From Patescibacteria group bacterium (lineage in GTDB: Bacteria; Patescibacteriota; Patescibacteriia; WFTA01; S139-112): DNA of 64,000 nucleotides. Position numbers and translations under genes: made by a program. The notes under the pieces were generated by a model. The model had not been told where the DNA came from, did no database searches, and saw only the letters and a program-made list of their open reading frames with translations. The stretch lies in the NCBI GenBank assembly GCA_015485695.1, contig WFTB01000027.1, forward strand, positions 20,183-84,182. Direction: 5' to 3'. Position 1 is the first letter of the stretch. The number at the start of each line of letters is the position of its first letter. Below, piece by piece: positions 6,118 through 62,540 of the stretch.

Positions 6118-6143
6118 CCGGCTTCAAGTGGTGTATTTATCAA

Positions 6144-6190
6144 AACTCGCGCAACTTATCAAGGTGGCGCGAGTTTTCGGTTTTTATGTT
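6144..6190 (+). terminator. Rho-independent terminator after rplA
   Basis: Stem aactcgcgc (6144-6152) pairs with gcgcgagtt (6167-6175), followed by a T-run (ttcggtttttatgtttttt). Confidence 0.6.
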
Positions 6191-6227: not shown

Positions 6228-6836
6228 ATGCCGGTGCCAAAAAAATTAATAAAATACCTGGACAGAGAAAAGGTTCCGTATGAAATTGTGGAGCACAAAA
6301 TCGCGCACACTTCATCGGATTTGGCTTTAACGTTGCGAATCAACCCTAAACAAGTCGTAAAAACCGTTGTGATCAAGATTAACGGCAAAGTTCCGATTTT
6401 GTCCCTGATTCCCGCGAATAAGCGCTTGAACGAGGATAAGCTTGGAAACGCGGTTTATAACGCGATACTGGATATGCGCGGAAAAATGGCGCGTTTGAAC
6501 AATGATCAACACGCGGTACCGACGGAGTGGAATTTCCCGATTCAAGATTTGAAAGGTAAGAAGTTCAGATCCGAGATTGCCGGAAAAAAATGGATAAATG
6601 AAAAGCTTTTGGGAAACCCCGGAGCCACGCCTCCTTTTGGTCGTCTGATGCGATTGCCCACATTTATGGACAAATCATTTTTTAAGGAAAATTTTTTAAT
6701 CTTGAATTCCGGTGACTATCGCGTATCGATAAAAATGAAAACCGAAGATTTCGTTAGGTTGGAGATGCCTTTGTCGGGGCGCATAAGTTCGATTGGGAAG
6801 ACGCAATTAAAACTCAATGAAACGGCTAAACGGTAA
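6228..6836 (+). CDS. YbaK/ProX-like aminoacyl-tRNA deacylase domain protein
   Basis: YEIVEH...TSSDLA...VVKTVVIKINGKVPILSLIPANKRL matches the YbaK/EbsC pattern. It has a C-terminal extension. Confidence 0.5.
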   Translation: MPVPKKLIKYLDREKVPYEIVEHKIAHTSSDLALTLRINPKQVVKTVVIKINGKVPILSLIPANKRLNEDKLGNAVYNAILDMRGKMARLNNDQHAVPTEWNFPIQDLKGKKFRSEIAGKKWINEKLLGNPGATPPFGRLMRLPTFMDKSFFKENFLILNSGDYRVSIKMKTEDFVRLEMPLSGRISSIGKTQLKLNETAKR

Positions 6837-6921
6837 ATCGCAATCCGGGTCGGCGTGTTTGCGTCTTGTCGGAATCTTGTTTTCATAGTCGACGTAAAAC
6901 AATCGTGGTTTACGGTTTTTA

Positions 6922-7701
6922 TTGTCACAAGAACGCATGGCTGATATACTAAGTCCGATAAAGAAGAAAAACATGAGTTCTGAGCAATTATTGGCACAAC
7001 CGATTAAGATAGAGCAGTTCGACGGTCCGTTTCACGTTCTCGTTGAGCTTTTGAATTCGAAAGAACTCGATATAACCGAAGTCAATTTGAGTGAAATAAC
7101 CGAACAGTACATAGAGGCTGTCAACAACCAGCGAGACACGGACCCTTATACATTGGCGGATTTTCTGGTTGTCGCGAGCAGGCTCATATATTTGAAGTCG
7201 AAGACCATACTGCCCATGTTGTTGCCGGAAGATGAGGACGAGGAATCTGTGGCGAATTTGGAAGACCAGCTCAAAATGTATAAACGATTTTACGAAGCCT
7301 CCAAAACAATAGGGGAGATGATCGATAATCGTAATATTATGCATGTTCGCGAAAAAATCGCGGTTGACGTTGGGGTTTTGTTTAACCCTCCGCATGCCGT
7401 AACCGGAGAAAAAATGAGAGACATATTTGCGAGTGTCGTGAACGGACTCGAACCTATTGTCAAGATTCCGGAAAAAGTTATAAAGAGAGTTGTGTCTCTC
7501 AGTGAAAAGATGAATCAGATACGAGAGCGAATCCTAAACAAAATGAATGCGAATTTCTCCGAACTGTTGAACGGAGCAGAAGGTAAGCCTGAATTGGTGG
7601 TAACTTTTTTGGCTGTTTTGGAGCTTGTCAAGCAAAAAGTCCTTATAGTAGACCAAGATGAACTGCATGGTGATATAACAATAACGAAAAAAACGGATTG
7701 A
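6922..7701 (+). CDS. scpA: Segregation and condensation protein A
   Basis: FDGPFHVLVELLNSKELDITEVNLSEITEQYIEAV matches the ScpA N-terminus. Its stop overlaps the scpB start (ATGA). Confidence 0.8.
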   Translation: MSQERMADILSPIKKKNMSSEQLLAQPIKIEQFDGPFHVLVELLNSKELDITEVNLSEITEQYIEAVNNQRDTDPYTLADFLVVASRLIYLKSKTILPMLLPEDEDEESVANLEDQLKMYKRFYEASKTIGEMIDNRNIMHVREKIAVDVGVLFNPPHAVTGEKMRDIFASVVNGLEPIVKIPEKVIKRVVSLSEKMNQIRERILNKMNANFSELLNGAEGKPELVVTFLAVLELVKQKVLIVDQDELHGDITITKKTD

Positions 7702-29372: not shown

Positions 29373-29458
29373 AACACGTTCATTCTATATCAATTGAGTA
29401 TTATCAGCAAATCGGATAGAATGAATCTGTGCCGATTCGCTTATTTGTCTCAATATTT

Positions 29459-30688
29459 ATGAAAATTTGTCTTATTAACAGTCTATATCCTCCGTATTCG
29501 CGCGGTGGGGCCGAAAACGTTACGCATGTGACCGCATTGTCGCTTCGTGATATGGGTTACGAAGTCTTGGTGATTACCACCGATGCGGAATCGTACATAT
29601 GGGATTTCAAACCATACAAACTTGAAATCAGAGAAGGGATAAAGGTGTGCAGGGTTCGGTCTTTTAACATGACAAGTTTCCATGATTATACGCGCAAGCC
29701 TCTTTGGTTCAGACTGATTTGGTTAGGGATTGATATGGTGAATCCTTTTCCCGCGCTTTCGGTAAGGAAAATTTTAAAAAAAGAAAGACCGGATATTGTA
29801 CATATGCACAATACCAGAGGTTTGTCGTATCTGATACCGCGCATCGTTAAAAAAATAGGTTTGAAAAGCGTGATGACTTTGCACGATATTCAATATGTTT
29901 ATCCGTCTGGTCTTTTAATCCGAGGGGAAGAAAAAGACTTAGTTAACACTTTCTTTTTGAGGAGATGGTATGAGGGTTTTTGCAAAATTTTGTTAAAATC
30001 TCCGGATGTTATCATTTTTCCGTCCAAGTGGTTGTCGGATTTTTACGCAGGTCGAGGATTTTTCAACGAGTCCGTAAAGGAATCGATGAGAAATCCGGTT
30101 AGTAAAAAACCGCGAAACGGTTATGCGAAACCTTTGAAAGATAAAAAATTAAACATATTGTATGTCGGTCAAGCGGAAAAGCACAAAGGAATTTTGTTCG
30201 CCGTTCGAAAGATGCAAAACATCTCCACCATGGAATTTCGACTTTCAATAGTGGGTGACGGATCTTTGATCGACGACATGCGTAGGGAATTCAAGGGAGA
30301 CGACAGATTCGTTTTTTACGGTCGCGTATCCCACAATGAGGTTGAAAGATTTTACAATATGGCTGACGCGCTCATTATGCCCACTTTGACGTATGAAAAC
30401 TCTCCGACCGTTATCGTCGAGGCGTTTTCTTCTTCCGTTCCGGTTATAGCGTCGAATATCGGCGGAATTCCGGAATTGGTCGCAGAAGGCGAGACGGGCT
30501 GGCTTTTTGAAGCGGGAGACGGTGATTCGCTTGTTACGACGCTGAAAAGGGCGAAATCGGACATTGGCGATGTCGAAGTTTTGAATCACATGAAAAAACG
30601 ATGTTTGGAGGAATCTTTGAAATCGGATTCCAAAAAATACGCGAACCGTCTTGTGAATATTTATTCCGATTTGAACGTTAGTCGGTGA
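29459..30688 (+). CDS. Glycosyltransferase family 4 (GT-B fold)
   Basis: C-terminal nucleotide-sugar binding motif E..SSVPVIASNIGGIPELV. N-terminal MKICLINSLYPPYSRGGAE. Confidence 0.7.
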   Translation: MKICLINSLYPPYSRGGAENVTHVTALSLRDMGYEVLVITTDAESYIWDFKPYKLEIREGIKVCRVRSFNMTSFHDYTRKPLWFRLIWLGIDMVNPFPALSVRKILKKERPDIVHMHNTRGLSYLIPRIVKKIGLKSVMTLHDIQYVYPSGLLIRGEEKDLVNTFFLRRWYEGFCKILLKSPDVIIFPSKWLSDFYAGRGFFNESVKESMRNPVSKKPRNGYAKPLKDKKLNILYVGQAEKHKGILFAVRKMQNISTMEFRLSIVGDGSLIDDMRREFKGDDRFVFYGRVSHNEVERFYNMADALIMPTLTYENSPTVIVEAFSSSVPVIASNIGGIPELVAEGETGWLFEAGDGDSLVTTLKRAKSDIGDVEVLNHMKKRCLEESLKSDSKKYANRLVNIYSDLNVSR

Positions 30689-30746
30689 TGACGTTTTCTC
30701 CGGTTTTTTTGATGAATGTTTCGTGTTTTTAATCTTCAATCGAATG

Positions 30747-30770
30747 ACTTTTGCAATCGATTGCAAAAGT
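30747..30770. promoter_or_regulatory. 24-bp perfect palindrome acttttgcaatc|gattgcaaaagt, abutting the -35 of the hrcA promoter
   Basis: Reverse complement of the first 12 nt equals the last 12 nt exactly. Candidate operator; it is not a canonical terminator, since no U-tract follows. Confidence 0.4.
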
Positions 30771-30771
30771 C

Positions 30772-30801
30772 TTGACAACGGTCTTTGTAGTGTTGTATAG
30801 T
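30772..30801 (+). promoter_or_regulatory. hrcA-operon promoter: TTGACA, 18-nt spacer, TATAGT
   Basis: TTGACA at 30772-30777 and TATAGT at 30796-30801, about 5 nt before CIRCE. Confidence 0.5.
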
Positions 30802-30805
30802 GATT

Positions 30806-30832
30806 TTAGCAGTCTGATAGAGGGAGTGCTAA
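30806..30832 (+). promoter_or_regulatory. CIRCE operator (HrcA binding site) TTAGCAGTC-N9-GAGTGCTAA
   Basis: Matches the CIRCE consensus TTAGCACTC-N9-GAGTGCTAA with one mismatch. Located between the promoter and hrcA. Confidence 0.8.
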
Positions 30833-30951
30833 AATGTCTGATTTGATTATCGGCTGTGAAAGTTTGAACGGTTTCAATATAATTGTTTGTCAATGGTAAA
30901 TGCGCGTTTGAGCTGGATTGTTAAGGGGAGCGTCATGTTCGTTTTTGATTT

Positions 30952-31647
30952 ATGGATGAGAGAAAAAAACAATTGTTGATGTACATAGTTGAAGATTACA
31001 TAGCCTCGGCGGAACCCGTGTCATCCGGTCAATTGGTCGAGAAATATGAAATAGGCGTATCATCCGCGACAGTGCGCAATGACATGGCGTCTCTCGAACA
31101 AGACGGGTATCTGATAAGTCCGCACACTTCGTCCGGTCGCATACCGACCGAGCTTGGGTATAAGGCGTATTTTGAGTTCAAGAGTGATTCGGGTAAAATA
31201 CTAAACGCATCGGAGCAAAAGAGAATAGAAAAGGCGTATACTCTGGCGTGTGATGAGCGAAATCAGTTGAAGTCCGCGGCGCGCGCCCTTGCCGATGTGG
31301 CTGACGGAGCGGTAATTGTCGGTTTTGACAGAAACGATGTATACTATACCGGCATTTCTCACTTGTTCTCTCAGCCCGAGTTTTGCCAGCCTCACATAAT
31401 ATACGGCATAGGCGCCGTGGTCGACAGGCTTGAGGAGCGTATTTCGGAGATGTTCTCAAGCGTTCGGGAGAATGTGACCGTCCGAATCGGCTCTGATAAT
31501 CCGTTTTCCGATGAGTGCAGTTTCATAGGATTTACTTTTGTCAAGGACAGGTGTGAACATCTCTTCGGTCTTATGGGTCCCATGAGAATGAATTATCTAA
31601 AAAACGTCGCACGTTTGAGTTATGTTAGAAAACTATTTACGAATTAA
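30952..31647 (+). CDS. hrcA: Heat-inducible transcription repressor HrcA (short form)
   Basis: N-terminal wHTH PVSSGQLVEKYEIGVSSATVRNDMASLEQDGYL. Followed by grpE. Confidence 0.8.
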   Translation: MDERKKQLLMYIVEDYIASAEPVSSGQLVEKYEIGVSSATVRNDMASLEQDGYLISPHTSSGRIPTELGYKAYFEFKSDSGKILNASEQKRIEKAYTLACDERNQLKSAARALADVADGAVIVGFDRNDVYYTGISHLFSQPEFCQPHIIYGIGAVVDRLEERISEMFSSVRENVTVRIGSDNPFSDECSFIGFTFVKDRCEHLFGLMGPMRMNYLKNVARLSYVRKLFTN

Positions 31648-31653
31648 TTTGGT

Positions 31654-32184
31654 ATGGCAAACAAAAAAAAGGATTCGAAAAAAACAACAAACTCCGAAGA
31701 TACCGAGAAAAACGCTTCGGAAATCGACAACTTGAAAAAACAAATAGAAGAGTTAAAACTTGAATCCGAAAAAAATTTAAACGGGTGGAAGCGGGCTCAG
31801 GCCGATTATCAGAATTATCTGAAAAACGCCGGTCGCGACAGAGAGCGATTCGAAAAAATAACAACGATTTCCATTTTGACTCGATTTTTCCCATTGCACA
31901 GGAATTTGTCATTGGCTCTTGAGCACACCCCGGAAGAATACAAAGAAAATGAATGGGTTCGCGGAATAGAACAAATATTCAAGCAGTCTGAAGCGCTTCT
32001 TAACGAATTCGGCGTTGAACAAATAAAGACTGAAGGAGAAAAGTTTGACCCCGAGTTTCATGAAGCAATATCCAAGGAAAAACACGACTCAAAACAAACG
32101 GGAGATATAATAAGAGAAGTTTCCCCCGGATACATGTTAAATGGAGAGACGATAGTACCTTCACAGGTGGTGGTCGCCGAATAA
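31654..32184 (+). CDS. grpE: Nucleotide exchange factor GrpE
   Basis: Coiled-coil N-terminus. KRAQADYQNY...GETIVPSQVVVAE is a GrpE signature. Confidence 0.85.
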   Translation: MANKKKDSKKTTNSEDTEKNASEIDNLKKQIEELKLESEKNLNGWKRAQADYQNYLKNAGRDRERFEKITTISILTRFFPLHRNLSLALEHTPEEYKENEWVRGIEQIFKQSEALLNEFGVEQIKTEGEKFDPEFHEAISKEKHDSKQTGDIIREVSPGYMLNGETIVPSQVVVAE

Positions 32185-32321
32185 CATGATAGCAAATCAC
32201 AGGTTTAGAATCCCGGATTGCATTTTAGAATTAAAAATCAAATTTGAAATGCTAGATATTAGTAAAATTAGATAAGTCGCACTTAGTTTTAACTTAAGAT
32301 AATCAGTTAATCAAAACACAT

Positions 32322-32741
32322 ATGGCTATTATAAAATGGACACCCATGATTGATTCTTTACAAGATGTTGATAATTTGCTCGGAGAGTTTAGGGGTTTGA
32401 ATTCTTCCGGTTTGGTGCCGGCAATAGACATATACGAAGATCAAGACTCCATAATCGCCGAAGCACCTCTCCCGGGTATTGACATAAAAGACGTTAAAGT
32501 TTCGGTTGAGAACGATACTCTGACCATAGAAGGCTCAAGCAAAAAGAGCACGGAGATAGATGAGAAGAATTATTATAGAAAAGAGATTCGCTCCGGTTCG
32601 TTTCACAGAGTTGTTCAGTTGCCCGTCGCGGTTGACGGATCGAAAACTCGCGGAACATATGAAGATGGTGTCTTGAAGGTTGTGATGCCGAAACGAGATG
32701 AATTAAAATCAAAGACGATAGATATAGAAATTAAAAAATAA
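32322..32741 (+). CDS. Hsp20/alpha-crystallin family small heat-shock protein
   Basis: Alpha-crystallin domain (PAIDIYEDQDSIIAEAPLPGI...GVLKVVMPK). Confidence 0.85.
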   Translation: MAIIKWTPMIDSLQDVDNLLGEFRGLNSSGLVPAIDIYEDQDSIIAEAPLPGIDIKDVKVSVENDTLTIEGSSKKSTEIDEKNYYRKEIRSGSFHRVVQLPVAVDGSKTRGTYEDGVLKVVMPKRDELKSKTIDIEIKK

Positions 32742-32770
32742 TAGCGCGGTATTTACCGATTTTAAACCGT

Positions 32771-33094
32771 ATGCACCAAAATTCAATGTTAAGACAATCG
32801 CAACAACTTAATCCTGAATGTCCAATCTGCAATCATAAATACGATATACAGAGAATTCAAATTTTGGACGAAAACGAACAAGGCGTTTTGACGCACTTTT
32901 CGTGCAAGAATTGTTTTGCTTCGTTTCTTGCGACAATAGTCGAAACTCCGTTCGGACACATGGCCTCCGGGCTTTTAACGGACCTTTGCGCCGATGAAGT
33001 TCTGAAATTCGCGGAGCAAGACACGATAAACAATGACGATGTTCTTGAGATTCACGAGATGCTGGAAAAAAATCAATTCAATTTTAATGAGTAA
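32771..33094 (+). CDS. Hypothetical zinc-ribbon-like protein inside the heat-shock operon
   Basis: CPICNHKY...SCKNCFASF (CxxC-N-CxxC). No known family recognized. Confidence 0.35.
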   Translation: MHQNSMLRQSQQLNPECPICNHKYDIQRIQILDENEQGVLTHFSCKNCFASFLATIVETPFGHMASGLLTDLCADEVLKFAEQDTINNDDVLEIHEMLEKNQFNFNE

Positions 33095-33148
33095 CGCGCT
33101 TTTCATGCGTAAAACAGACTTATTTGTAATAGATTAATTTGAAACAAT

Positions 33149-35065
33149 ATGAGCAAAATACTTGGAATAGACTTGGGTACGACGAATTCCGCCGTAGCGA
33201 TAATGGAAGGCGGAAAACCCAAAATTTTGGAAAACAAAGAAGGAAACAGAACCACTCCTTCAATGGTTGCCATTAACAAAAACGGAGAAAGACTGGTGGG
33301 GCAACTCGCCAAGCGTCAATCCGTGACGAACCCGGAAAACACTCTTTTTTCGGTAAAGCGTTTAATCGGTCGCAGGTTTGATGATGAAGAGGTGCAACAT
33401 GCGATGAAGGTTTTGCCTTACAAAATAGTAAAGTCCGGAGATGGGGTGAAAGTCGTAATGAACGGAAAGGAATATACTCCACAGGAAATCTCCGCGATGA
33501 TTTTGCAAAAACTGAAAACCGACGCCGAAGAAAAGCTTGGGGAGAAAATAACTGAGGCGGTAATAACGGTTCCCGCGTATTTTGACGACGCTCAGAGAAA
33601 AGCGACCAAAGAAGCCGGAGAAATAGCCGGATTGAAAGTTGATCGCTTGGTCAATGAGCCCACTGCGGCGGCTCTGGCATATGGATTCGAAAAAAAATCC
33701 GGACAGCAAATAATAGTTTATGATCTGGGAGGGGGAACTTTTGATGTTTCGGTTCTTGATATTTCAGATGATACTGTTGAGGTTAAATCAACCGCCGGAG
33801 ACACATTTCTCGGTGGAAACGATTTTGACAGGGTTATCATAGACTGGATTGTCGATGAGTTTAAGAAAGACCAAGGCATAGACCTGTCCGGCGACCCTCT
33901 CGCTATGCAACGCGTGAACGAGTCCGCCGAAAAAGCCAAAATAGAACTTTCGTCCGCGCAAGAAACGGAAATCAATCAACCGTTTATAACGACGGACGAG
34001 GCGGGACCAAAGCACCTTCAAATCACTTTGAAGCGTTCGAAACTCGAGGAGCTTGTCTCAGACCTTGTTGACAAGACTTTTGATTCTGTGAAACAAGCAT
34101 TAAAAGACGCCGATTTGGAAGCAAAAGACATAGAAGAGGTCATATTGGTCGGAGGAATGACTCGAATGCCTCTTGTTCAGAAGAAAGTTGAAGAGTTTTT
34201 CGGCAAAAAACCGAACATTTCGGTAAACCCCGACGAAGTGGTGGCATCCGGCGCCGCGGTTCAGGCCGGTGTCTTGCAGGGTGACGTTAAAGACGTATTG
34301 CTTTTGGACGTGACACCGCTTACTCTCGGTCTTGAAACCATGGGAGGGGTATCGACACCTCTTATAGAACGCAATACGACCATACCGACTTCGAAGTCGC
34401 AAATATTTTCAACCGCCGCGGACAACCAACCTTCTGTGGAGATTCATGTATTGCAAGGAGAAAGACCCATGGCGGCGGACAATAAAACCTTAGGTAGATT
34501 CATATTGGACGGCATTCCACCCGCTCCGAGAGGTACTCCTCAGATTGAAGTTACGTTTGATATTGACGCTAACGGAATTTTGACCGTAAAAGCCAAGGAT
34601 AAAGCCACCGGAAAAGAACAGCATATAACCATTACCGGATCAACGGGTCTTTCGGAAGAAGAAATAAACAAAATGAAAGAAGACGCGAAGGTTCACGAAG
34701 AAGAGGATAAAAAGAAAAAAGAGCTTATAGAAGCCAGGAACTTGGCGGATTCTCTTGTGTTCCAAACCGAGAAAGCTATTGAAGAAGCCGGGGATAAAGT
34801 TGGCGACGATGTTAAGAAGCCGATTGAAGAAAAACTGGAGGAACTCAAGAAAGTAAAGGATGGAGACGATATCGAAGCCATAAAAAACGCTACGAATGAA
34901 TTGACCGGTGTGGCGCAAAAGCTCGGAGAAGCCATGTATGCTAAATCTCAAACCGCGGAAGGTTCTGAATCAACCGATGAAGAATCAAAAGACGATCAAG
35001 GAAAAGAAAAAGACGCCGTAGAGGCGGATTTCGAAGAGGTTAAAGATGACGATAACAATAAATAA
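33149..35065 (+). CDS. dnaK: Molecular chaperone DnaK (Hsp70)
   Basis: [18 protein letters not shown] and the full Hsp70 architecture. 638 aa. Confidence 0.97.
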
Positions 35066-35124: not shown

Positions 35125-35421
35125 ATGTCCAACGAACAAAATCAGGTCAAAATGCAAATAAAGATGTCCGATGACGTGCTTAAGGGAACGTATGCTAACG
35201 CCATGCAAATAGGGCACACGCAAGAAGAATTCGTTGTGGATTTCATGAATCTGTCTCCAAGACAAGGCATAGGTATTGTAAGCTCTCGCGTCATAATATC
35301 CCCGGGTCACCTTAAAAGAATAATATCCGCCATGCAAGACAATCTTAAGCGATACGAAAACCAGTTCGGAGAAATTAAAGAAGCCTCTCAACCCGATGGA
35401 ATAGGTTTTAAGGCCGAATAG
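35125..35421 (+). CDS. Conserved small hypothetical protein between dnaK and dnaJ (possibly DUF3467-like)
   Basis: 98 aa with no motif I can name. The family assignment is a guess. Confidence 0.35.
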   Translation: MSNEQNQVKMQIKMSDDVLKGTYANAMQIGHTQEEFVVDFMNLSPRQGIGIVSSRVIISPGHLKRIISAMQDNLKRYENQFGEIKEASQPDGIGFKAE

Positions 35422-35521: not shown

Positions 35522-36616
35522 ATGTCTGATTATTATAGCGTGCTGGGCGTCAGTAAAAACGCCGATAAAGACGAAATTAAAAAAGCGTTCCGTAAGCTTG
35601 CTCACAAATATCACCCCGATAAGGACGGTGGCGACGAAGCCAAATTCAAAGAAGTCAACGAAGCCTATCAAGTTCTCTCGGATGATAAAAAGAGACAACA
35701 GTATGATCGGTTTGGTCAGACTTTTGATGGCGCTGGACAGCAATACGCGAACATGAATTGGGACGATTTCGCATCTCAGTTCGGAGACATGTTCGGGGGC
35801 GGTGGCGGAGTTGGCGGGTTTGATTTCGGCGACATATTCGCCCAAGCTTTCGGCGGACAAAGAGCCGGCTCTCGTCGTCAATCTTCAGTTCGCGGGCAAG
35901 ATGTTGAGATGAGTATGAATATAGATTTTCGCACGGCGGTTTTCGGAGACGAAAAGACGGTCTCTGCTAACATGTTGCAAACATGCGATGTTTGCGACGG
36001 TGACGGCGCCGAGCCGGGATCGAAGATAATAACCTGTCCGGAGTGTAAAGGTTCCGGGCATGTTATTCACGACCAGCGCAGTATTCTCGGAATGATTAGG
36101 CAACAAGTAACATGCCGAACATGCAAAGGACAGGGGAATAAGCCGGAACGATTTTGCAAATCTTGTCACGGTCAAGGAAGGAGAGTCGCAGATAAGAAAA
36201 TAAAAGTAAAAATCCCCGCCGGAATAGACGACGGGCAAGCTATAAAGCTTTCCGGGCAAGGAGAGGCGGGAATGAACGGAGCTTCTCCCGGTGATTTGTT
36301 TATAAGATTTAACGTTTCAAAGGACAAGGAATTCGAAAGACAAGGATATGATATATATAAATCTTTGCACATAAGTTTTACGGATGCGGCTCTCGGGGAA
36401 ACTATTCGAGTAAATACTCTCGACGGTCCGGTTGATTTGAAAATTCCACCCGGAACTCAATCCGGACAAATCCTCAAACTGAAAGGAAAAGGCGTTCCGC
36501 ATCTTGGAGCGCCGAACAGAAGGGGAGACCAGCTGGTGATGATTCATGTGGATGTTCCGAAAAGACTTAGCAGAAAACAGAAGAAATTATTGGAAGAGTT
36601 TAAGAAAATCAGCTAA
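35522..36616 (+). CDS. dnaJ: Molecular chaperone DnaJ
   Basis: J-domain (YYSVLGV...KYHPD), a G/F-rich region, and a 4x CxxCxGxG zinc finger. The ORF-track start at 35465 is upstream of the true ATG. Confidence 0.9.
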
Positions 36617-36632
36617 TCGCTGATTTTTTTAA
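36607..36632 (+). terminator. Rho-independent terminator of the dnaJ operon
   Basis: Stem aatcagc/gctgatt, 5-nt loop, followed by ttttt. The dnaJ stop codon lies in the loop. Confidence 0.6.
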
Positions 36633-46880: not shown

Positions 46881-46917
46881 CAAAACCCTCTCAAAATAGG
46901 AATTTGAGAGGGTTTTG
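46881..46917. terminator. Bidirectional terminator hairpin between the convergent ATPase and DsbA-like genes
   Basis: 15-bp stem caaaaccctctcaaa/tttgagagggttttg with a 7-nt loop. Confidence 0.7.
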
Positions 46918-62487: not shown

Positions 62488-62540
62488 AAAATCCCATGCC
62501 TCAAAATACGTCGATCGTGTTATTTTGAGGCATGGGATTT
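62488..62540 (-). repeat. REP/MITE-like palindromic element E (most symmetric copy)
   Basis: aaATCCCATGCCTCAAAATAcgtcgatcgtgtTATTTTGAGGCATGGGATtt has 16-bp perfect arms. Confidence 0.75.

Follow-up and report, generated by a model that had tools for sequence, protein, structure and literature searches.

A LacI-type palindrome as a candidate second operator at the HrcA/CIRCE promoter of a Patescibacteria-like chaperone operon

Just upstream of the hrcA-dnaK operon of a Patescibacteria-like bacterium, a perfect palindrome of 26 bp abuts the -35 hexamer of the promoter, and a CIRCE element follows the -10 hexamer. Judging from its sequence, we tentatively propose that the palindrome serves as the operator of a LacI-type dimer, which would give the HrcA/CIRCE promoter a second input. 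We favor this reading, without being confident of it, because the palindrome lies beyond what shuffled sequences produce, is unique in the window (the whole 64-kb stretch of DNA that we analyzed), and adjoins the best-matching promoter of the region. The features of the region are listed below, with coordinates in the window; features with no orientation are marked as unstranded.

29429-30688, + strand: upstream GT4 glycosyltransferase gene, syntenic in relatives
30682-30710, + strand: weak 6-pair hairpin with U7 after it, overlapping the stop of the glycosyltransferase gene; seen in a fold of 30680-30800
30737-30746, unstranded: partial copy CAATCGAATG of the palindrome's center (CAATCGATTG), with its CG 17 bp upstream of the main CG
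30746-30771, unstranded: perfect palindrome, GACTTTTGCAATC followed without a spacer by GATTGCAAAAGTC, 26 bp; candidate operator
30751-30766, unstranded: 16-bp core TTGCAATCGATTGCAA of the palindrome, with a central CpG, of the LacI/GalR (cre or PurR-box) operator type
30772-30777, + strand: -35 hexamer TTGACA, abutting the palindrome; invariant in five aligned loci
30796-30801, + strand: -10 hexamer TATAGT, after an 18-nt spacer; TTGTATA is conserved in relatives
30806-30832, + strand: CIRCE, TTAGCAGTC-N9-GAGTGCTAA; HrcA operator, overlapping the probable transcription start
30952-31647, + strand: hrcA, short form of 231 aa (PF01628), longest ORF
31654-32184, + strand: grpE
32322-32741, + strand: hsp20
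32771-33094, + strand: ORF of 107 aa with CxxC motifs and no Pfam match
33149-35065, + strand: dnaK
35125-35421, + strand: DUF3467 gene between dnaK and dnaJ, as also in the relative L013
35465-36616, + strand: dnaJ
36600-36632: canonical terminator at the end of dnaJ

The best promoter-like site between 29000 and 33500 is TTGACA-N18-TATAGT (11/12 matches), which has the TTGACA hexamer, the 16-18-nt spacer, and the TATAAT-like hexamer of a sigma-70-type promoter. CIRCE begins 4 nt after the -10 hexamer and has one mismatch to the consensus TTAGCACTC-N9-GAGTGCTAA. It is the sole match in the window, where 0.03 matches would be expected by chance, and the G variant of its left arm is also found in three of the relatives (L013, L016, and L018). 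An earlier note on this DNA had described the promoter and CIRCE, and we find both where it placed them. Relatives whose HrcA proteins are 46-70% identical keep the promoter, and they keep CIRCE together with its 4-nt gap to the -10 hexamer. Class I heat-shock control by HrcA places CIRCE on the transcription start of an hrcA-containing chaperone operon or immediately downstream of it, and this is the arrangement that we see. We infer that transcription starts near 30808, about 7 nt after the -10 hexamer. Relative to that position, the palindrome would span about -62 to -37 (center at -49.5), its 16-bp core -57 to -42, the -35 hexamer -36 to -31, and CIRCE -2 to +25.

The start of hrcA is ambiguous: the longest ORF encodes 231 aa (from 30952), while public gene calls have 222 aa from 30979 (MYIVEDYI). 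Short HrcA proteins of about 221-260 aa are the rule among the listed Patescibacteria homologs, and homologs of the short form are overwhelmingly from metagenome bins of Patescibacteria/CPR. The leader between CIRCE and the hrcA ATG (30833-30951) is unusually long, at about 120 nt, as compared to about 60 nt in L013 and about 13 nt in L016 and L018. It contains a 21-codon ORF at 30834-30899 (MSDLIIGCESLNGFNIIVCQW). At 30856-30883, it also has another promoter-like site (GTGAAA-16-TATAAT), and transcription from there would bypass CIRCE. A search of 30500-33300 against Rfam gave no match, and the 5' leader does not fold better than shuffled sequences. Further downstream, the 107-aa ORF between hsp20 and dnaK has two CxxC pairs (CPIC...CKNC), and L013 has a 108-aa ORF at the same position in the operon (6781-7107). 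The 107-aa ORF may be an uncharacterized zinc-ribbon member of the CPR heat-shock operon.

The earlier note had reported a palindrome of 24 bp at 30747-30770. The palindrome is real, but it is 26 bp long and extends from 30746 to 30771. To obtain a null expectation, we used 300 shuffles of the 64-kb window that preserve dinucleotides. The longest perfect even palindrome in any shuffle was 24 bp, which occurred in 2 of the 300, and 14-18 bp was typical. As the observed length is above the maximum of all 300 shuffles, the palindrome is more than chance. The second-longest palindrome in the actual window is 18 bp. We found no second copy of the 20-mer in the window, even with up to 3 mismatches (0.02 copies expected by chance). 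In single-stranded DNA, the palindrome forms a stem of 11 bp closed by a TCGA loop (-9.8 kcal/mol). These four nucleotides are themselves self-complementary, that is, the symmetry continues through the center. This fits a dimer that reads duplex DNA; an RNA hairpin needs no such symmetry. The partial copy at 30737-30746 agrees with the 14-mer at 10/14 positions, which is too weak for the scan with 3 mismatches to find. It could be a second, degenerate site or a remnant of the palindrome's origin.

Two other assemblies of the same species (L014 and L015) have intergenic sequences identical to the window's, so an artefact of one assembly is unlikely. GCA_027002035.1 and ENA assemblies of the REYS20-1 series represent the same species, also with an identical intergenic sequence. 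This invariance within the species carries no weight, because the three assemblies are about 99.9% identical. GCA_027002035.1 has 6 differences from the window over 3.9 kb, of which 4 lie within 140 bp (32717-32854), where hsp20 ends and the 107-aa ORF begins. This assembly seems to be broken, with an overlap of about 350 bp, exactly over the region of the palindrome, promoter, and CIRCE: contig JALTLK010000032.1 begins at 30717 of the window, which is 29 nt before the palindrome, and by coordinate arithmetic, JALTLK010000024.1 should end near 31066.

The core of the palindrome has the form of a LacI/GalR operator, which is an inverted repeat of even length (about 14-20 bp) centered on a CpG step. 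The halves of the candidate operator are TTGCAATC and GATTGCAA, and the central CG is at 30758-30759. On both strands, the core TTGCAATCGATTGCAA is an exact match to the cre consensus WTGNAANCGNWNNCW (and also to TGnAAnCGnTTnCA). The former consensus string reportedly comes from Miwa et al. in 2000. The window has 3 matches to the cre consensus (1.85 expected), and two of the three are the palindrome site. We take the core's half-site, GCAAnC/G, to be that of PurR-type boxes.

A hallmark of the sites bound by LacI-family proteins is a conserved CG at the center, which the hinge-helix residue AA-54 contacts (Camas et al. 2010, PMC2978694). The central CG of the core fits this contact, which supports the LacI-type reading. 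Local autoregulation is pervasive in this family (PMC2978694), and the binding-site file in the supplement of Camas et al. has the exact 14-mer TGCAATCGATTGCA five times as a local LacI-family site. The regulators in those entries have the recognition sequences PSTVSR, VSTVSR, and RSTVSR, and one entry in the file has the full 16-mer.

A scan of metagenomes for the exact 16-mer found at least 120 loci, which are a sample rather than a census. The window's own species was not among the loci that the scan listed. A LacI-family gene whose N-terminus could be placed was present at 19 of the 120 listed loci, and at 13 of the 120 (11 independent sequences), the center of the site was 30-162 bp upstream of the start of such a gene. 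With random placement of the sites in those loci, about 0.6 would be expected (binomial P about 4e-13). The contigs with this linkage range from 35 to 65% G+C. All 13 linked regulators have a recognition stretch that ends in SRAL, and 10 of the 13 have S before TVSR; the variants include STASR (L073, L097), TATISR (L103), PGTVSR (L114), and SSVSR (L133). One contig (L044, 7270-7317) has two exact 16-mers 32 bp, or three helical turns, apart, directly in front of both a LacI-family gene and a divergent gene, which is a textbook case of paired autoregulatory operators in tandem.

The linkage in metagenomes, together with the list of Camas et al., indicates that the core is a documented and recurring natural operator sequence of the LacI family. 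The bases next to the core differ: here, T precedes and A follows, while the LacI-linked sites mostly have A before and T after. The earlier note had suggested that a second, unknown dimeric regulator might bind. Given the exact cores upstream of LacI-family genes and in the list of Camas et al., a dimeric type of operator seems right, and the candidate regulator would belong to a known family, LacI. The note had also suggested a link between the upstream glycosyltransferase and heat shock, for which we found no support.

The exact 16-mer TTGCAATCGATTGCAA also occurs two or three times per contig on L028 (619, 2220, and 4002), L101 (4404 and 7976), and the viral contigs L178 and L190. The left flanks of these repeated copies are unrelated to each other, and the right flank is often AAAACC. 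These contigs are G+C-rich, come from mobile elements or phages, and carry integrase, resolvase, and DnaB-like helicase genes; on none of the four is a LacI gene visible. The repetition of the 16-mer without a LacI gene shows that the core is not exclusive to LacI proteins. The repeated copies look like the operator set of a mobile-element regulator.

If the palindrome is a LacI-type operator, then a homodimeric helix-turn-helix regulator would bind it as duplex DNA, with hinge helices inserted at the central CpG, as in the LacI/GalR family. The bound dimer would occupy the zone of the alpha-CTD and the UP element and would touch the region bound by sigma region 4. This second regulator, which would have to be present in the genome, would modulate the promoter independently of HrcA, which would act on CIRCE over the transcription start. 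Repression is the most likely direction because most members of the family are repressors, and activation is possible. Upstream cre sites can also activate. The operon would then receive two inputs: protein-folding stress via HrcA, and a small-molecule or metabolic signal via the second regulator.

To see if the palindrome is conserved, we read the regions upstream of hrcA in relatives (L013, L016/L017, L018, L019, and L001-L003) and scanned them for inverted repeats. None of these regions has a comparable palindrome. In the closest available relative, L013, HrcA is 70% identical and the genes are in the same order. The promoter (TTGACA-N18-TATGCT) and CIRCE are both kept there, with the 4-nt gap between them, and the palindrome is absent. 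L016, L018, and L019 (with HrcA proteins that are 53, 51, and 46% identical) likewise keep the promoter and CIRCE and have no inverted repeat upstream, and the more distant L001-L003 show the same pattern. As the palindrome is missing from relatives in which the promoter and CIRCE are conserved, it appears to be a recent, lineage-specific addition to a promoter-CIRCE module. L013 does have a CRP-like sequence, TGTGT-N6-TCACA, at a similar position, but only 6/8 pairs are symmetric and the inverted-repeat scan missed it, so we consider it to be a probable chance match.

We looked for a cognate regulator and for additional sites. The 64-kb window has no LacI-family gene that tblastn and phmmer with LacI, PurR, and CcpA or Pfam calls could find, and neither do the flanks taken from GCA_027002035.1 (8.5 kb on the left and 8.8 kb on the right, or 17.3 kb). 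The Pfam calls cover 49 ORFs of the window singly, plus a summary for 64 ORFs in which the 25 most-matched families are listed. Among the Pfam-scanned ORFs of the window, the sole DNA-binding regulators are HrcA and an ArsR-type protein of 92 aa at 582-860. Directly after the gene for this winged-helix protein, on the same (+) strand, comes one for a DUF4258 protein (582-1258 in all), and the pair resembles a toxin-antitoxin module.

The earlier note had proposed a search for the palindrome elsewhere in the genome. In the window and flanks (about 81 kb), there is no further site with up to 2 mismatches, so nothing in that DNA points to a regulon. We scanned the window and both flanks (L231 and L233) with the 20-mer, the 18-mer, the 14-mer, and pairs of half-sites, which gave nothing above chance. 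We also searched the literature on LacI-family regulators in Patescibacteria, Saccharibacteria, or CPR and found nothing useful. The 107-aa CxxC protein is unlikely to be the binder, as L013 has the gene but not the palindrome. On sequence, we rejected HAIR (CTTGAGT-N7-ACTCAAG), CtsR, parS, dif, and the Fur, Rex, FNR/CRP, and NrdR boxes. We also rejected the C-protein box (GACT-N3-AGTC twice), of which just the outer GACT...AGTC fits.

The alternative in the earlier note was that the palindrome is an unusual, loop-poor hairpin terminator, and its anatomy led us to reject this. The window has four clear terminators (6142-6177, 36600-36632, 46881-46917, and 62489-62540), each laid out as an A-tract, a G+C-rich stem, a non-palindromic loop of 5-12 nt, and a T-tract. 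Our reference for terminators in this genome was the hairpins at 46881-46917 and 62489-62540, which are long and perfect (arms of 15 nt and 20 nt) and lie between convergent genes; with A- and T-tracts on their two sides, they look like bidirectional terminators. The palindrome has the reverse layout, with TTTT on its 5' arm and AAAA on its 3' arm. An intrinsic terminator is a G+C-rich stem-loop followed by a U-tract, but just 3 of the 11 pairs in the palindrome's stem are G-C, neither strand has a U-tract after the stem (it is followed by UUGACAAC on the + strand and by AUUCGAUU on the - strand), and a scan for consensus terminators made no call. Also, the glycosyltransferase gene already has a candidate terminator at its stop codon, namely the separate hairpin with U7 at 30682-30710; a stricter terminator scan did not flag this hairpin. 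The palindrome could still act as an RNA hairpin that ends the glycosyltransferase transcript, either as a terminator that lacks a U-tract or as a stabilizer against 3' exonucleases. Its RNA form would have an 11-bp stem and a UCGA loop (-13.9 to -14.2 kcal/mol; z about -3.3), which is similar in energy to the hairpin of the dnaJ terminator (-15.1 kcal/mol), and it would lie on the coding strand, 58 nt downstream of the stop codon. The palindrome thus shares with rho-independent terminators a possible stable stem-loop 3' of a gene, but it differs from them in the absence of a U-tract, in the reversed A/T tracts, and in a minimal loop that is self-complementary. Furthermore, L013 does without the hairpin: just 32 nt separate its glycosyltransferase stop from the -35 hexamer. 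Because of the missing U-tract, the reversed tracts, and the hairpin with U7 at 30682-30710, we rank the terminator reading low, and we consider a role as an RNA hairpin to be very unlikely.

Another explanation is that a dimeric regulator from a different family (Xre/Cro-like or another HTH type, possibly from a mobile element) uses the palindrome as its operator, and that the resemblance of the palindrome to LacI sites is due to convergence on a common palindrome. The exact cores that recur between unrelated flanks on L028 and L101, which have no LacI gene, and on the phage contigs L178 and L190 are consistent with this, and the AAAAC(C) flank that is frequent there is like the AAAAG flank here. 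Also, a symmetric site of 26 bp suits larger footprints, such as the 12-2-12 sites of ArsR/SmtB proteins, and the window does encode an ArsR-type protein (at 582-860). However, nothing similar to the palindrome is found upstream of the ArsR-type gene, no regulator gene adjoins the palindrome (its neighbors are just the glycosyltransferase gene and hrcA), and LacI is the sole family that our analysis links directly, by genomic context, to the exact core. We consider another family to be unlikely. The palindrome might instead be young and functionless, having arisen by template switching, correction of a quasi-palindrome, or a small insertion, and not yet decayed. Its absence from all of the relatives that we examined, where the promoter and CIRCE are conserved and the palindrome aligns as extra sequence, is what this explanation would predict, as are its single occurrence in about 81 kb and the failure to find a cognate regulator in that DNA; and the partial direct copy of the center, 17 bp upstream, hints at local duplication. 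On the other hand, chance alone does not yield 26 bp in this window, and it would be an unlikely coincidence for a functionless sequence both to abut the -35 hexamer exactly and to have a core identical to a widely used operator, as a 16-mer is 1 of about 4e9 sequences. We consider the absence of any function to be fairly unlikely. Finally, it is highly improbable that the palindrome is a structural switch in the DNA rather than a protein site, with a cruciform that extrudes when negative supercoiling changes. Its 11-bp arms (-9.8 kcal/mol per strand) would then distort or free the abutting -35 hexamer. If so, temperature or supercoiling would act directly on the chaperone promoter of a bacterium that has very few regulators.

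The LacI-type operator that we favor has difficulties of its own. The perfect symmetry of 26 bp is longer than a LacI-type footprint requires, and the center at -49.5 is not a classical position for an activator. Neither a LacI gene nor a second site is found in about 81 kb, and the four nearest relatives available to us lack the palindrome. Also, the T/A flanks of the core differ from those of the LacI-linked sites, and the core recurs where no LacI gene is seen.

Patescibacteria/CPR have tiny genomes with few regulators, and to our knowledge, hardly anything is known of their transcriptional control. Each kind of element described here (a sigma-70-type promoter, CIRCE, and a LacI-type palindromic operator) is known already. 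What would be new is the combination in a Patescibacteria-like genome and the apparent recent gain of the second operator. If the palindrome is functional, then the main chaperone operon of this uncultured, Patescibacteria-like host is under dual control, by HrcA/CIRCE and by a LacI-type metabolite sensor, which has so far been suggested only in a Lactobacillus. The second input would also have been gained recently, as sister species lack the palindrome. If the palindrome is not functional, then an operator sequence that is perfect by consensus lies beside a promoter without a regulon, which would be a caution for predicting regulons from motifs.

Control of heat-shock operons by two repressors is also reported for HspR/HAIR with HrcA/CIRCE in Campylobacter and Helicobacter (PMC7464140), and the chaperone promoter here would likewise have two distinct palindromic operators. 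The HAIR sequence is unrelated to the palindrome, and we saw no HspR/MerR-type gene in the window. The operators of LacI/GalR proteins of the TVSR group (PurR-box-like, GCAAnCGnTTGC; PMC2978694) share with the palindrome an even symmetry, a central CpG, and the specificity nucleotides CA (NT-5 and NT-4). These sites are typically beside the gene for their own regulator or a sugar operon, whereas the palindrome precedes a chaperone operon and has no LacI gene close by. Also, they are often between the -35 and -10 hexamers (as in L033, L039, and L119), while the palindrome is upstream of the -35 hexamer, with a symmetry that reaches 26 bp.

The known system that offers a precedent for a palindrome combined with CIRCE is Lactobacillus plantarum, where, in both the dnaK and the groESL operon, CIRCE comes immediately after the transcription start and putative cre sites lie upstream, and where full heat induction of both requires CcpA (PMC1676014). 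L. plantarum is a Firmicute in which CcpA is present and required, while we found no LacI gene in about 81 kb of a Patescibacteria-like lineage. Its putative cre sites are far upstream (-117.5 and -147.5), imperfect, and have an extra base, while the site here is perfect, is centered at -49.5, and abuts the -35 hexamer. Nevertheless, both have a LacI-type palindrome upstream of a sigma-A-type promoter, CIRCE over the start, and an hrcA-grpE-dnaK-dnaJ operon, and in both, a metabolic regulator is layered on HrcA, or, in our case, is proposed to be.
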